The notes beneath the pieces were generated by a model that saw nothing but the letters and a program-made list of their open reading frames with translations, did not search any database and was not told the DNA's origin. Source: Gammaproteobacteria bacterium (lineage in GTDB: Bacteria > Pseudomonadota > Gammaproteobacteria > Eutrophobiales > Eutrophobiaceae). From it: a DNA stretch of 64,000 nt. The DNA is taken from assembly GCA_026710545.1 (NCBI GenBank), contig JAPOQU010000011.1, positions 1,155-65,154 of the forward strand, given 5' to 3'. The translations under genes were made by a program, and so were the position numbers. Within the stretch, counting starts at the first letter, position 1. Each line of letters begins with the position of its first letter. This document shows positions 28,157 through 34,572 of this stretch, piece by piece.

Positions 28157-28434
28157 ATGCGCGTTAGTATCTTATTGCCTGTTGTCATCACGTCATGCCT
28201 GTTCCTCTGCGCCTGTGACCGCAGCGAAGCGCCGCAGGGCGGCAGCACAGCCGGGGCCGCGGGGGTCAGCGACGAGCGCCTGGTGAATGCCGATGCGGAG
28301 CCCCACAACTGGCTGAACCACGGACGTACCTGGAGAAAACCGAAACCGACGCCATCCATGCCTACGTTATCAAGCGCGCTCACGACCCGGAATATATGCC
28401 CGCTAGCCTGAAGCCGGTCAGCGCGACACATTGA
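28157..28434 (+). pseudogene. remnant of a PQQ-dependent dehydrogenase gene (N- and C-termini only)
   Basis: Lipoprotein signal (LFLCAC) plus DERLVNADAEPHNWLNHGRTW, a typical quinoprotein N-terminus. After a frameshift this is followed by a C-terminal-like ETDAIHAYVIKRAHD... segment. The propeller of about 500 aa is absent. Confidence 0.55.
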
Positions 28435-28508
28435 TTTGTTGCGGCGCCGACGTTTAAATATTATACTTTAGTAAAACTTTGTAGACGATCTTGTATGACT
28501 GGAGAAGC

Positions 28509-28769
28509 ATGATGACACAACTCGCAATCAGGCAATCGGGAGGCGCCAATATCATCAGTATCCCGAAAGCAATCCTGAAGACGCTAGGCCTCGAGGTAGG
28601 TTCGACGCTGAACCTGTCACTGGAAGATAGCCGGATAGTACTGACTCCCGCAGCCAAGGAACCTACCTTGGAAGAATTGCTGGCAAGGAGCCCCAGGGAA
28701 AACTTCGGACTGACCGACGAGGATCGGGAATGGCTCTCTGAGGCTCCGGCCGGCAAGGAACTGATTTGA
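28509..28769 (+). CDS. mazE: MazE/PemI-type (AbrB/SpoVT fold) antitoxin
   Basis: LAIRQSGGANIISIPKAILKTLGLEVGSTLNLSLEDSRIVLTP. Its stop overlaps the mazF start. Confidence 0.8.
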   Translation: MMTQLAIRQSGGANIISIPKAILKTLGLEVGSTLNLSLEDSRIVLTPAAKEPTLEELLARSPRENFGLTDEDREWLSEAPAGKELI

Positions 28770-29098
28770 CTTACACGCCGGACAAGGGAGACATCGTCTG
28801 GCTTGACTTCGACCCCAGCAGCGGCAACGAGATAATGAAGCGCCGCCCGGCCTTCGTCATATCCAGGAAGGCATTCAACGATCATACCGGAATGGCCGTC
28901 GTGGCCCCGATTACCAGTACCATCCGCAACACCAGGCTGGAAGTAATACTGCCCGATAACTTGAAGACGAATGGTTCGATACTGGTTTACCAGTTAAAGT
29001 CACTCGACATCGTGCAACGCCAGGTAAAATTTATCGAGCAGGCCCCCCGGGAAACCACCAAGCAGGCCACAACACTCGCCAGTATCATCATTCAGTAA
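28766..29098 (+). CDS. mazF: MazF/PemK-family endoribonuclease toxin
   Basis: YTPDKGDIVWLDFDPSSGNEIMKRRPAFVIS...VVAPITS. The apparent start is a TTG overlapping the mazE stop. Confidence 0.85.
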   Translation: MTYTPDKGDIVWLDFDPSSGNEIMKRRPAFVISRKAFNDHTGMAVVAPITSTIRNTRLEVILPDNLKTNGSILVYQLKSLDIVQRQVKFIEQAPRETTKQATTLASIIIQ

Positions 29099-29140: not shown

Positions 29141-30289
29141 TCATAATTTCAACAGTTCACAGAACCTGGTTAAAGGAAGAACCCTCGCCTTCAACTCCGC
29201 CCGTTCGTAGTCCCTGTCCTCCGTGTGCACCTGGTAATAATACGGGATGTCGGTACGCTGCGAGAAATAAGCTATGTTCCTGCTCAGGTTCCTATTCCCT
29301 GTTTTGCACTCGACCGCAAACAGCGGTTTATCGTTCTCAACTACCACGAAGTCCAGTTCTCTCCCTATTGCATCCCTGACAAACCTCAATTCCATTTCAC
29401 TGCCTTCGGTATCCTCACGGAAATGGCAGTACTTCAGCAAATGCGACGCTACCAGGTTTTCAAAACGGGCGCTCTCATCCCCGCACAGCGACCAATCCCA
29501 CAGGTACAGCTTGCGTTCCTTTTTCACGGCCCGAAGGCGGGGCAGCCCGTAGGGAGATATCCTGAAACAGTAATACAGGTTCTCCAGGATCGTAATCCAG
29601 CGGTCCACGGTTTCGTAGGCTACCGACAGGTCCTGTTTCAGCTTATTCAGAGAAAGGATGGAGGAAACCTTGTCGGGCAACATCCGCACAAGCAGGTCCA
29701 GTTGAGAGACCTCCTTCACGTTTTCCAGGTTTATCAGATCCTCCTGTATTACCCGGCTTTGCCTCTCCCGCTGCCACCTCTTCCAATGGCGCGCGTTCTG
29801 TTTCAAAAACGGCTCGGGAAAACCGCCATAGCGCAACAGGACAGACAAGTCCGAGCGGGTCGGCTTGTTGTTCAATTCATACAACGAAAACGGGTGCAGG
29901 CGGTAGTAGTGATAACGTCCCTGTAATGAATCACCCCCCCTCCTGTAATGATCCAGCCGCGCAGATCCGGTGATAAGAAAGCGCTTTGTGGACTTGAATT
30001 TATCGTAAAAACCCTTGACCAGGTTGCGCCAGTGCCTGTATTTATGTATCTCGTCGAATATCAGCAGCGATTGATCTGCGGGCAGACCACCGTCCAGGAG
30101 CATCCGCTGGGTTTCATAAAGGTCCCAGTTAAGGTATGCAGGGTGGGATTCATCAGCGCCTTCGAGCAGGCTGAGCGCAAGCGTCGTCTTGCCGACCTGC
30201 CTCGGCCCGCCCAGGAAAACTATTTTCTCGGCCAGGTCCTGGTTGATGGAGGCTGTCAGGTACCGGTTCAGCAATGTCATTTCCGCCAT
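29141..30289 (-). CDS. AAA+ ATPase of the DUF4143/COG1373 type (second copy of the family)
   Basis: Walker A GGPRQVGKTTLA and Walker B LLIFDEIHK. The C-terminal motif ELDFVVVENDKPLFAVECK is restriction-endonuclease-like. Confidence 0.7.
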   Translation of the reverse strand: MAEMTLLNRYLTASINQDLAEKIVFLGGPRQVGKTTLALSLLEGADESHPAYLNWDLYETQRMLLDGGLPADQSLLIFDEIHKYRHWRNLVKGFYDKFKSTKRFLITGSARLDHYRRGGDSLQGRYHYYRLHPFSLYELNNKPTRSDLSVLLRYGGFPEPFLKQNARHWKRWQRERQSRVIQEDLINLENVKEVSQLDLLVRMLPDKVSSILSLNKLKQDLSVAYETVDRWITILENLYYCFRISPYGLPRLRAVKKERKLYLWDWSLCGDESARFENLVASHLLKYCHFREDTEGSEMELRFVRDAIGRELDFVVVENDKPLFAVECKTGNRNLSRNIAYFSQRTDIPYYYQVHTEDRDYERAELKARVLPLTRFCELLKL

Positions 30290-30522
30290 GGAACGTTAAC
30301 GTAAATTTTAGAGTACACTCTATAATAATCGTGTTAAGTTCAGAGTCAACCTGAAATATTACATATACTGACCTTATTCACCACTTAATCAGCAAACCCA
30401 TGACATGCTACAATTTATCTGCTATGCATAACCACCACAGTTATGCTTTAACCTGGTAAACGAAGACTTTAAACTCAACCCAAATATGTCTGTGATTCAT
30501 TGCTGCGAGTTGACTGAAAAAA

Positions 30523-31122
30523 ATGACAGAAAATAATTTTCAGGTAAGACTCGCAACAGCCTATCCGGGTGCACAACCAGTTCAGTCATCCAAAGGGACG
30601 ACATTAAAGGCCGAAATATCAACTGATCAAGGTCGTAAAGACGCATTTGTAAAATTAATCAGTATTGATGACATAGCCAGAGAAGCGCTTTGTGCAGTAT
30701 TGGCAAGGAAACTTCAACTTCCCATGTTGCAGCCCTATTATGTTCATGTTGATCCCAGTGTCTTAGGTGATTACCGTGCAGGAAATATTCATGACATAGC
30801 TTTTGGTCTTGAAGCTGAAGAGGCGCCCACATTTCGAGTAATCCATCAGTTGACGGAAGAAGAGATTTCAGGATGGAGTGATGTTTTACGCGTCGCAGTA
30901 TTCGATGAGTGGATTTATAATCGGGACAGAATTCCGACCAACCTGATATTTACTGGTAAAGGGCGTTTTCGATTGATTGACCACGATGAAGCTTTGCCAA
31001 ATTACGCGTCCCCAGATGCCTGTTCAAATGCACAGCTTTTACAACACCTGGCGCGCAACAAATCGGAAATAGAGTTGCATCAGATGCGGAGGAAGGCTTT
31101 TGAGAGTATTGAAGAATATTAG
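30523..31122 (+). CDS. HipA-like / PI3-4-kinase-fold mini-kinase, interrupted by an in-frame TAG (the frame continues to 31320)
   Basis: Catalytic-loop-like FDEWIYNRDRIPTNLIF and RLIDHDEAL. After the TAG at 31120..31122 the same frame stays open for 65 more codons, ending in TAATG shared with the next gene. Confidence 0.5.
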   Translation: MTENNFQVRLATAYPGAQPVQSSKGTTLKAEISTDQGRKDAFVKLISIDDIAREALCAVLARKLQLPMLQPYYVHVDPSVLGDYRAGNIHDIAFGLEAEEAPTFRVIHQLTEEEISGWSDVLRVAVFDEWIYNRDRIPTNLIFTGKGRFRLIDHDEALPNYASPDACSNAQLLQHLARNKSEIELHQMRRKAFESIEEY

Positions 31123-31319
31123 TCAGTAAATTGGGGTGAAATCTATAAGCTCCTGCTCCCGGATAACTTGCCAGGGGGCGCACCAATTTTCGACAAATTC
31201 ATACAATTTCTCAGTGTCCGTAGTGAACACATGCGTGCTATCATTACTCAAAGTCTGGGTATTAAACAACAAGAATTAAATCTTTCGATACCAGGCAAGA
31301 CCGTCAGAGAGGGGGACTA

Positions 31320-32165
31320 ATGTCAGCATCGTATCCAGAATTACCCGGTTACGGTTTTTCATGGAGGAGTATTCAGATCGAACCTGTCCCAGTCTCAGGT
31401 GAGAGGATAACTTTGGGAGCGATTGTTAAAGGAGACAACCAGGAATTGCTCGCTGCAAAAGTAGTTTCAAAACCTCATTTGAGAAAAATCTATGGCCGTG
31501 AATTCGGTGCTCGAATTGCAGAGGCTCTGAGTTTGTGTATCAACCATGCCGAAAAATATTACTCAACAAACCCACTGTCAAATAAGTGGTCACCTCCCCT
31601 GGACAGATTTTATGTCGGAGAATTGCATTCCTCCGTTGCTGAAAACATTGAGGAGGGTCTGTCAAGAGCGGCCAGGCAATCCTCCTCTTTCAGTGTTTCT
31701 CTTGAAGAGGAAAAAACCGGATCAAGCACAAGTCCCGCCGTGTCTGCACCCAAATCCTGGCAGAAAGCGATAAGGCAGGTCGTAACAGACGAACGAGAAG
31801 AATTCCTGAATTATTTTGAAAAAAGCGTACCAGTCCGGGACTCAGGCGTACCGTTAACATTCAGTTTTCTGTCCAGTAACTATGCTGCGCAGTTCGATGC
31901 AATTACAGAAACAAAACAAATCCAGAGAGTATTGGTTAGAGCCCAGAGTAAGCTATGGCAGCTCGATCGGCTCAGGGATGAGAGCGCCCTGATTCATCCG
32001 AAATTCTGTGAGTTGTTGCTGCAAATACCGGATAGTGATGAAACCTCTGAAGTCAGTGAATTTGTAGAGGAGTTGGATTACGAAGCCTCCAGAAGAGAGT
32101 TAGGTTTATTCTCTACTACTTCACCGGTCGATGCTGCAAGACATTTGATTGAAAAAGCAGCTTGA
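31320..32165 (+). CDS. hypothetical protein (the N-terminus is reminiscent of DUF3037), partner of the mini-kinase
   Basis: 281-aa ORF whose ATG overlaps the TAA of the extended kinase frame. The N-terminal pattern is WRSIQIEPVPVSGERITLGAIV. The DUF3037 assignment is from memory and unverified. Confidence 0.35.
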   Translation: MSASYPELPGYGFSWRSIQIEPVPVSGERITLGAIVKGDNQELLAAKVVSKPHLRKIYGREFGARIAEALSLCINHAEKYYSTNPLSNKWSPPLDRFYVGELHSSVAENIEEGLSRAARQSSSFSVSLEEEKTGSSTSPAVSAPKSWQKAIRQVVTDEREEFLNYFEKSVPVRDSGVPLTFSFLSSNYAAQFDAITETKQIQRVLVRAQSKLWQLDRLRDESALIHPKFCELLLQIPDSDETSEVSEFVEELDYEASRRELGLFSTTSPVDAARHLIEKAA

Positions 32166-33170: not shown

Positions 33171-33605
33171 TTAAAAAAATAATGCCGGGTTTACGTTGAA
33201 ACGTTTACTTAATGCTTCGATATGATTACGCGTAAACCTGCGTTCACCGTGTAAAATTCTGGATACCAGTGATTTACTCCCAATCTCAGGCAGGTCTGCA
33301 ACGCCGAGTTTATGTTGTTCCATAATGACTTTAAGCGTTGCTATGCCGCTGTCGAGTTTTTCAATTCGGTCATTAAAAGACTTAAACTCGGGCGATTTAT
33401 CCTCCCAGCGAGCGATAGAAGCAGAAAGGACGTCAATGAGTGGTTGCTGGTTGTCATAGTCCTCTATTAATTCGTCCATGAGGGCCAATGCCTGTGCGTA
33501 ATCAGCCTCATTGCTGATGTGGCTGATAAAAGGCGCCTGGTTGAATAGTTCAAAGGCATGTTCTTTGATGGCAGCAAATCCCATATCAGCTTGCCTGTTT
33601 TGCAT
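33171..33605 (-). CDS. higA: HigA-family HTH antitoxin
   Basis: C-terminal XRE-type HTH (LGVADLPEIGSKSLVSRILHGERRFTRNHIEAL). It lies downstream of and overlaps higB. The start is uncertain (33605 or 33584). Confidence 0.75.
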   Translation of the reverse strand: MQNRQADMGFAAIKEHAFELFNQAPFISHISNEADYAQALALMDELIEDYDNQQPLIDVLSASIARWEDKSPEFKSFNDRIEKLDSGIATLKVIMEQHKLGVADLPEIGSKSLVSRILHGERRFTRNHIEALSKRFNVNPALFF

Positions 33606-33897
33606 AGCGTCTGGAGAGCTTGTCATATTCAGCATGATTGACAATGTGTTTTACGTACATACGATTATCATTAAACCCAATGAAGGCGATCAAACGCAGG
33701 TTGTTTCCTCCTATATCGATGACCCACCATTTATCCTTATGCTTGAAGTTGTCCAGTGACGGAAATACTTTATTCAAATCTTCCGGACGTTTGAACTCAC
33801 CTTTGCGCAGAACTTTATAAGTCCTTTCAATCGCTGCTGCGTCATTCGGATATTTGCTTGCGGCAGCATTAAAAATCTTCCTGGATATAATGTGCAA
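33586..33897 (-). CDS. higB: HigB-family mRNA interferase toxin
   Basis: MHIISRKIFNAAASKYPNDAAAIE...WVIDIGGNNLRLIAFIGF..MYVKHIVNHAEYDK is the typical HigB pattern. Confidence 0.8.
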   Translation of the reverse strand: MHIISRKIFNAAASKYPNDAAAIERTYKVLRKGEFKRPEDLNKVFPSLDNFKHKDKWWVIDIGGNNLRLIAFIGFNDNRMYVKHIVNHAEYDKLSRRYAKQAS

Positions 33898-34057: not shown

Positions 34058-34572
34058 ATGCAGATGCTATTCAATGATAAAACCCTGGAGCTTGCCGAAG
34101 GCGATATAACAGATCTCAACATCGACGCCATCGTCAATGAGGCAAACTCCTCGCTCATTTTAGGCGCAGGAGTGGCCGGCGCCATTCGCGCCAAAGGCGG
34201 TCCCAGGAATGCGATGAAATCGGCGGCTGTCCGGTAGGCGGCGCGGTGATCACCACCAGCGGCAATCTCAAGGCGCGGTACGTGATCCATGCCGCCGGCC
34301 CGCGCAAGGGAGAAGGGGACGAGGAGGAAAAACTCAGGAACGCCACACTGAGCAGCCTAAGAGTCGCAGATGAGAACGGCCTGAAAAGCATCGGGTTCCC
34401 GGCCATCAGCACCGGTGTATTCGGGTTTCCGATTGAGCGCTGCGCGGAGATCATGCTTTCCGCTACGATGGATTACCTGCAGGGAGAAACCGGGCTGGTG
34501 AGGGTGGTTTTCTGTTTGTATGGGGTGGAGGCGTTTGGGGTTTTTGAGGGGGGTTTGAAGGAGTTCCAATGA
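34058..34572 (+). pseudogene. macro-domain gene copy 2, frameshifted
   Basis: Near full-length paralogue of 42148..42672. About 10 nt are deleted near 34206 (GGTCCC^AGGAATGC versus GGCCCTGCCATCCAGCAGGAATGC), which breaks the frame. The distal part reappears as ORF 34246..34572. Confidence 0.85.

Follow-up and report, generated by a model that had tools for sequence, protein, structure and literature searches.

The module described here occupies positions 30523 to 32165 of a 64,000-nucleotide (nt) stretch of the gammaproteobacterial contig JAPOQU010000011.1 (assembly GCA_026710545.1), which is referred to as the window throughout this work. It appears to consist of a gene for a HipA_2-family kinase of about 265 amino acids (aa), hit recently by a nonsense mutation, and of a gene for a partner protein of about 281 aa that begins at a stop/start overlap with the first. 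According to the comparison with homologous genes, the in-frame TAG that ends the kinase reading frame is a recent nonsense mutation at codon 200 of a 265-aa kinase, most simply a change of CAG to TAG. We consider it probable that the locus represents a two-gene kinase/partner module in which the kinase has been broken by a single base change and which, in its intact form, has a toxin-like function.

Direct reading of the sequence bears out the coordinates that a preliminary description of this DNA had assigned to the TAG, to the open continuation behind it and to the TAATG overlap (Table 1). Past the TAG, the same frame runs on for 65 sense codons (SVNWGEIYKLLLPDNLPGG...GKTVREGD) up to the TAA at 31318-31320, whose final A is the first base of the partner ATG. 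A stop/start junction of this kind, overlapping or abutting, is seen in most orthologous loci. The two genes had also been described as translationally coupled, a statement that fits the ancestral gene and not the present allele, in which translation ends 197 nt upstream of the partner ATG. Similarly, the length of the open continuation had been thought unlikely by chance. From the local base composition its probability is about 0.019, which agrees in direction, but the run is only mildly unlikely, and 7.7% of the stop-to-stop runs in the surrounding island reach at least 65 codons. Because chance runs of this length are not rare, the open frame is weak evidence; the decisive evidence comes from homology.

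The assignment of the first gene to the HipA-like kinases is upheld by two profile models. The 199-aa product matches Pfam HipA_2 (PF20613) with E=1.1e-10 and 41.6 bits (gathering cut-off 27) over profile positions 36-171 of 240, and the PADLOC defence-candidate model PDC-M66A matches the window kinase with E=5.6e-8. The kinase also matches the phage protein family phrog_3162. Both motifs quoted in the preliminary description, FDEWIYNRDRIPTNLIF and RLIDHDEAL, are present. In an alignment of 54 homologues, K44, D135, R136, P138, N140, D153 and H154 are invariant and D155 is conserved in at least 90%; the window kinase has all of them, and the catalytic-type motifs all lie before residue 156. 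The HipA_2 domain is nonetheless interrupted, since the TAG at codon 200 costs 65 of the 265 residues. Reading through the stop in silico lengthens the HipA_2 profile match only to position 182. The missing part can be judged from the AlphaFold2 model of the closest intact orthologue, P0001 (mean predicted local distance difference test score, pLDDT, 84.6; predicted template modelling score 0.84). The model has a protein-kinase-like/PI3-4-kinase-like fold, with Foldseek matches to CotH, VPS34 and CtkA, and is most confident at residues 191-240 (pLDDT 94-98, and 85 over 241-250). The helix 182-200 ends exactly where the TAG stands, and the part that the TAG removes contains the helices 204-210, 220-234 and 237-245.

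The fused kinase sequence, with an X placed at the stop, was used as the query for a database search and retrieved 85 homologues. Some 80 of these are single polypeptides with a length of about 265 aa (261-300) that cover 95-100% of the query with identities of up to 87%; the orthologues thus run straight through the position of the stop. The 65-codon extension aligns with residues 201-265 of all the full-length homologues, and within it the columns F229, L230 and R233 are invariant, while W204 is invariant in one alignment (A1) and at least 90% conserved in another (A5). The residue aligned to the TAG itself varies across orthologues, being Q, K, L, R, C, N, E or A. The codon-level tests relied on two contigs, L005 and L006; at the protein level, their kinases share 78% and 72% identity with that of the window, respectively. 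At codon 200, L005 has CAG and L006 has AAG; from CAG, one C-to-T transition suffices to produce the TAG. Two options had originally been offered for this stop, a very recent nonsense mutation in a 265-aa kinase or a site of read-through or suppression. The continuation of the orthologues and the conservation of the extension under purifying selection favour the first, and the TAG is an ordinary recent pseudogenising mutation for which no special mechanism is needed.

The TAG is real, to judge from its recurrence. Four other contigs, each from a different sample (JGI 3300027532, ERZ27241795, ERZ27241796 and SRR8092710), encode the exact 199-aa product; they come from three data sources and are 100% identical to the window over 1.4-2.0 kilobases (kb), TAG included. 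Counting the window, TAG is the only allele seen for this strain in five assemblies. A sequencing or assembly artefact over a codon 200 that is truly sense would require a single-base difference and no more, but the same base in four independent contigs excludes an assembly error and makes an artefact of any kind extremely improbable. Two of the contigs with the TAG allele, L001 (equal to window positions 30131-32151) and L002 (30185-32151), both end at 32151; this shared end of two independent metagenome contigs, just before the junction of the partner and the following esterase gene, suggests strain-level variation or a branch in the assembly graph.

The mutation is also recent, because no secondary lesions have accumulated. 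For the N-terminal and C-terminal parts of the kinase, identity between the window and P0001 is 88% and 82%, respectively, and two intact proteins (P0003 and P0004) give nearly the same figures, 87% and 80%; the extension has therefore diverged from its orthologues no more than intact C-termini have from one another. Window-specific changes affect 4 of the 65 extension positions, three of them in the disordered tail. Over codons 201-250, the ratio of nonsynonymous to synonymous substitution rates (dN/dS) is 0.16-0.23 between the window and intact genes and 0.28 between two intact genes. The low dN/dS and the few private changes mean that nearly all of the divergence arose while the segment was still translated.

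The same data have to be considered under the second option, in which a TAG that is partly suppressed, by programmed or tolerated read-through, would yield a little full-length kinase and act as a leaky stop that throttles the dosage of a toxic enzyme. Such a mechanism would account for 65 downstream codons that are intact and still end in the coupling overlap, it would be helped by a codon 200 so variable that any inserted residue should be tolerated, and it would agree with the TAG being the sole allele in the five assemblies. An intact extension is, however, equally expected after a recent mutation. Since a stop occurs here in none of the 85 homologues, the position is not a conserved recoding site, and TAG is an ordinary stop codon in the window, where it terminates 8 of the 38 other long open reading frames (ORFs). 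The two tRNAs encoded in the 64 kb of genome covered, Arg-ACG and Phe-GAA, are not suppressors, and shuffled sequence folds as well as the 120 nt that begin with the TAG (z=+0.82). For these reasons read-through or suppression is held to be very unlikely. A global reassignment of TAG was also considered and is rejected on the count of TAG-terminated ORFs. An Rfam search of the region gave no match, and a scan for promoters and terminators in it stayed at chance level.

Another possibility is that the truncated 199-aa protein is itself functional, either as a mini-kinase or as a decoy that binds the partner, maybe with a C-terminal peptide supplied in trans from a TTG at 31168. The position of the catalytic-type motifs, all upstream of the TAG, is in line with this idea, as are the 50-codon ORF that starts at this TTG and spans most of the lost helices and the persistence of the allele across samples. 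On the contrary, the removed segment carries invariant residues and is modelled with more confidence than any other part of the protein, the TTG ORF has no feature that would mark it as a gene, and no homologue is naturally split at this point; the short homologues are the result of frameshifts, deletions, or truncations at start codons or contig ends. A functional truncate is thus judged unlikely, and the nonsense mutation remains the preferred account of the allele.

The second gene encodes a protein that matches nothing in Pfam, NCBIfam or PADLOC, whether the window protein, 39 close relatives or 72 distant ones are used. It matches phrog_21150, a family of unknown function, over its full length with E=8.6e-28. 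The gene is intact and is preceded by a purine-rich, Shine-Dalgarno-like ribosome-binding sequence of its own (Table 1). The protein has 135 close homologues, and a profile search extends the family to 602 clusters at 50% identity. Its near-invariant residues cluster in an N-terminal motif, W15...E21-P22...S26-G27-E28, and its structure model is good only for residues 142-281. Foldseek matches of this C-terminal domain are weak but consistent and point to restriction-endonuclease-like folds: in the PDB these are XPF/Mus81/ERCC4 and Card1/Can2, and in BFVD they include ERCC4 proteins, a DUF1828 protein and a restriction endonuclease. The domain has no acidic or lysine residue that is invariant across the wider family.

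The association of this partner with the kinase is essentially absolute. In 31 genome loci collected with the partner as seed, the kinase stands immediately upstream unless it has visibly decayed, and in 80 metagenome loci collected with the kinase as seed, at kinase identities as low as 24%, a gene of the partner family stands immediately downstream wherever the contig continues. The pair is found on plasmids (Cupriavidus pHG1, Rahnella PRA1 and a phage-like Marinobacter plasmid, where it lies next to HicAB) and in temperate-type phages (Alteromonas phage P24 and Acinetobacter phage vB_AbaS_qsb1); in these two phages its neighbours are HTH (helix-turn-helix) or Arc-type regulator genes. In relatives whose kinases are 72% identical to that of the window, a co-directional ORF of 216 aa lies 77 nt upstream of the kinase (L006 5273-5923, L007 2167-2817 and L008 143-793). 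This ORF has no Pfam match and a weak match to phrog_26838, is missing from the window and from L005, and in phage P24 and the Marinobacter plasmid its place is taken by an HTH gene.

The module lies in a stretch of mosaic GC content that is rich in toxin-antitoxin and defence genes (Table 1). Compared with the syntenic contig L005, which encodes a 706-aa pyrroloquinoline quinone (PQQ) protein, the window has lost about 1.86 kb inside its PQQ-dehydrogenase gene, of which the start and the last ~80 nt are now joined. Collinearity between L005 and the window extends through the amidohydrolase gene and resumes 138 nt upstream of the kinase; the window holds MazEF and the ATPase gene where L005 has genes for an amidase and a major facilitator superfamily transporter. 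Because of this collinearity, the locus is not a fresh acquisition. In the macro-domain gene, a second ORF of 108 aa (34246-34572) in a different frame matches positions 47-118 of the Macro profile. The deletion in the PQQ-dehydrogenase gene and the apparent frameshift in the macro-domain gene indicate that several genes have decayed in this region of the genome. Downstream of the module, kinase, partner and esterase are packed head to tail in the window and in L009, and in L006, L007 and L010 the esterase is upstream of the pair.

Table 1. Coordinates of the kinase/partner module and of neighbouring features in the window
Feature	Position	Strand	Details and basis
Truncated kinase ORF	30523..31122	+	ATG at 30523, 199 codons, TAG at 31120-31122; read directly
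Kinase codons 1-199	30523..31119	+	HipA_2 family; contains every conserved catalytic-type residue: K44, E54, D135-R136-x-P138-x-N140, D153-H154-D155
Premature TAG, codon 200 (nonsense mutation)	31120..31122	+	Direct reading and homologous codons
Now-untranslated 65 codons	31123..31317	+	Original kinase C-terminus, three helices and disordered tail; homologue alignment
Shine-Dalgarno-like purine-rich run GAGAGGGGGA	31307-31316	+	Upstream of partner ATG; read directly
Ancestral kinase stop TAA overlapping partner ATG (TAATG)	31318-31320 (TAA), 31320-31322 (ATG)	+	Read directly
Intact partner gene	31320..32165	+	281 aa; TGA at 32163-32165; no Pfam, NCBIfam or PADLOC match; phrog_21150
Partner domains			N-terminal W-x5-EP-x-x-SGER motif (motif alignment); C-terminal restriction-endonuclease-like fold (structure model and Foldseek)
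GC-rich esterase gene (BD-FAE/Abhydrolase_3)	Start TTG 32162 or ATG 32171		TTG overlaps the partner TGA; ATG lies 5 nt after it
PQQ-dependent dehydrogenase remnant	28157-28411		Comparison with syntenic L005
MazE/MazF	28491-29098
AAA_14/DUF4143 ATPase	29141-30289	minus	PADLOC PDC-S01, E=8.6e-47
HigB toxin and overlapping 157-aa ORF	33171-33897	minus	157-aa ORF without Pfam match
Macro-domain gene, apparently frameshifted	34058-34572		59-aa ORF at 34058-34237 with typical macro N-terminus

Decay is not restricted to the window copy. The kinase is broken or absent beside an intact partner in the window, in L029 (three frameshifts), in L031 (no kinase) and in L033 (only a stub), and the homologue P0062 is a frameshifted kinase. 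In other cases (L036, L038, L110-L113 and P0085) both genes are decayed or fused. P0085, a 316-aa protein from a closely related strain, is a deletion chimera in which the kinase up to ...DRIPNNLI is joined in frame to the partner at about residue 31 (TLGAIVKG...), with half of each gene lost. Single ORFs that match both profiles also occur in L068 (2932-4485, 517 aa), which could be a natural kinase-partner fusion, and in L110-L113 (about 2902-4125, 407 aa), which looks like a deletion product. In Cellvibrio japonicus, a 240-aa kinase found on 40 contigs (P0079) ends in ...KARIPEM, about 25-30 residues before relatives such as P0082, and may likewise represent an allele truncated at the C-terminus, in this case one that is fixed in a species in culture. 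If the kinase is a toxin held in check by the partner, loss of the kinase with retention of the partner should dominate; the data only lean that way. Within the distant member of the family in L085 (3445-4356, one metagenome contig only), the partner has a single in-frame stop (...PPYLAR*VKDAKAKLWDL...).

It could be argued that the pair has nothing to do with toxicity or defence, and that the kinase, by coincidence a pseudogene in this strain, serves housekeeping or signalling together with a substrate or regulator protein. Three observations would suit this explanation: a DUF3037 domain is not detectable in the partner, the locus shares its synteny with related genomes and is not newly acquired, and some loci retain the kinase beside a broken partner. 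Against it, temperate-type phages and plasmids carry the pair beside repressor, HicAB and antirepressor genes, both proteins belong to phage protein families, and the kinase matches the defence-candidate model PDC-M66A. Furthermore, the window pair sits between MazEF, a PDC-S01-type ATPase and HigB, and the distribution of the family is patchy, with frequent loss. A role outside toxicity and defence is consequently regarded as improbable, and a toxin-like function of the intact module is preferred.

The mention of DUF3037 goes back to the preliminary description, which named proteins with this domain as companions of short HipA-family kinases and saw a resemblance to them in the N-terminus of the partner. 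Such a pairing agrees with the literature. A HipA-like kinase with a DUF3037 protein constitutes the PADLOC candidate PDC-M66, validated as DS-6 and renamed HipAD, in which the kinase mutation D139A abolishes defence (PMC13092281). A further pair of this type is found in the Retron-Sda1 operon, where deletion of the kinase abolishes defence and deletion of the DUF3037 gene is toxic (PMC12548924). The resemblance itself did not survive: the partner fails Pfam DUF3037 (PF11236), PADLOC PDC-M66B and direct profile searches, and its N-terminal likeness to DUF3037 is not significant on its own.

A more distant relationship was sought with the E. coli DS-6A and DS-6B sequences of the DefensePredictor supplement (WP_000389051.1 and WP_000210934.1), which match PDC-M66A and PDC-M66B with 6e-15 and 3.8e-16, respectively. 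For the kinase the relationship is clear, since hhalign aligns the window kinase family with DS-6A at a probability of 94%, catalytic Asp included; D135 aligns with the Asp of the DS-6A NADR motif, likely the site of D139A. For the partner it is much fainter. When the hidden Markov model (HMM) profiles of the two partner families were cross-searched without filters, no match was better than E=0.1; the window partner was not matched by a profile of 39 DS-6B relatives, and in hhalign the partner profile yielded no alignment with DS-6B as a single sequence. The only signal came from profile-profile comparison, in which the partner profile and the DS-6B-type profile gave a weak alignment, collinear over the full length (18-275 vs 10-259; score 37.0, P=2.4e-4, probability 44%); a partner profile of 125 sequences gave 35.3 and 34%. 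The controls stayed clearly below these values, with a maximum of 20.4 among 70 column-shuffled profiles and scores of 12-18 for reversed or unrelated ones. When the template was split, its C-terminal half, which is DUF1829-like in DS-6B, scored 34.2 and the DUF3037 half alone 14.2, which is not significant; the signal is therefore assigned to the C-terminal half. The architecture is that of DS-6B, and remote homology is plausible, at least for the C-terminal domain. No relative of solved structure turned up when PDB sequences were searched with the profiles of the kinase, the partner and DS-6B, and a DS-6B-type partner occurs at none of the 80 kinase-seeded metagenome loci. The module can be regarded as a divergent form of the known HipA-like kinase/DUF3037-type systems, in which the partner family is the component that the Pfam, NCBIfam and PADLOC models miss.

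By analogy with these systems, a kinase toxin with a neutralising partner would be the best-supported function, and the earlier suggestion of a kinase-based toxin or abortive-infection pair is reasonable on the same comparison with DS-6 and the Retron-Sda1 pair. In the intact module, the kinase would act as a growth-arresting toxin that is checked by the downstream protein and released on phage infection. The 199-aa product of the TAG allele is presumably inactive or unstable, and the strain would then carry a dead or crippled kinase and an orphan partner. Loss of the toxin half would be the kind of decay that the cell can tolerate.

Several points weigh against this interpretation. Selection on the TAG allele itself is not measurable, because its five copies are all identical, and low-level read-through is compatible with the sequence data alone. 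The 199-aa product keeps all the catalytic motifs, and its inactivity is something that we infer. At two distinct loci, L085 (in-frame stop) and L105/L106 (frameshift), it is the partner that is broken and the kinase that is apparently intact. In addition, the toxin/antitoxin analogy draws on systems with DUF3037 partners, and the window partner fails the HMM tests for both DUF3037 and PDC-M66B. A bolder joint claim can also be formulated, in which the phrog_21150-type pair would be a distinct and widespread kinase-based toxin or anti-phage system that curated annotation does not cover, carried by chromosomes, plasmids and temperate-type phages, with a partner very remotely related to DUF3037/DUF1829 proteins, and the TAG allele would at the same time be a leaky toxin throttled by read-through; this combination we regard as highly improbable.

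The interest of the locus lies in the partner family and not in the stop codon, the broken kinase being a case of routine gene decay. HipA_2-type kinases related to DS-6/PDC-M66 are very often paired with members of a family of partners of about 280-300 aa that are not recognisable DUF3037 proteins. Current defence-system finders would not call these loci, because Pfam, NCBIfam and PADLOC miss the partner family. If this family works like DS-6, the catalogue of kinase-based toxin and defence modules would be larger than annotated. Natural toxin-dead alleles would also provide ready-made controls, in which a single base, TAG to CAG, should restore activity.

Among the known systems, one is canonical HipBA, in which the kinase is the toxin (cited in PMC13092281); E. 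coli HipA has about 440 aa and is preceded by the gene of its HTH antitoxin HipB. HipA and the window kinase share a protein-kinase-like/PI3-4-kinase-like core with a D-x-x-x-x-N motif and a downstream Asp motif, but the window kinase is about 175 aa shorter and HipA_2 is its only Pfam match. The window pair lacks a HipB-like HTH antitoxin: its partner is encoded downstream and has no HTH match, and the upstream neighbour is the oppositely oriented AAA_14/DUF4143 ATPase gene. A canonical HipBA type II toxin-antitoxin system was accordingly considered and rejected, given the match to HipA_2 only and the lack of an upstream HipB HTH gene.

The pair of the Retron-Sda1 operon is closer in arrangement, with the kinase followed by the partner as here; its kinase is needed for defence and loss of its partner is toxic (PMC12548924). 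It is preceded by an HTH gene, as are the copies of the Marinobacter plasmid and phage P24. However, its partner is a true DUF3037 protein, which the window partner is not, and the window pair is found without a retron reverse transcriptase, a retron non-coding RNA or an HTH gene.

DS-6/HipAD, that is, PDC-M66, resembles the window module in several respects: the kinase comes first, stop and start overlap (by 4 nt in DS-6), the proteins are of similar size (249 and 275 aa, here 265 and 281 aa), both kinases match the same PADLOC model PDC-M66A, and DS-6B and the window partner have the same two-domain layout with a nuclease-like C-terminal domain. The two differ in that DS-6B matches PDC-M66B, whereas the window partner matches neither this model nor DUF3037. 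Moreover, the window kinase is truncated.

The phrog_3162 and phrog_21150 pairs of phages and plasmids are true members of the family, with E=1e-17 to 5e-29 for the kinase profile and E=2e-46 to 3e-85 for the partner profile, and their genes overlap as in the window. Annotation of these copies goes no further than "hypothetical protein" or "HipA family kinase" and assigns no function. Their kinases are intact and reside on mobile elements; the window copy, by contrast, is broken and lies on the chromosome, in synteny with related genomes.

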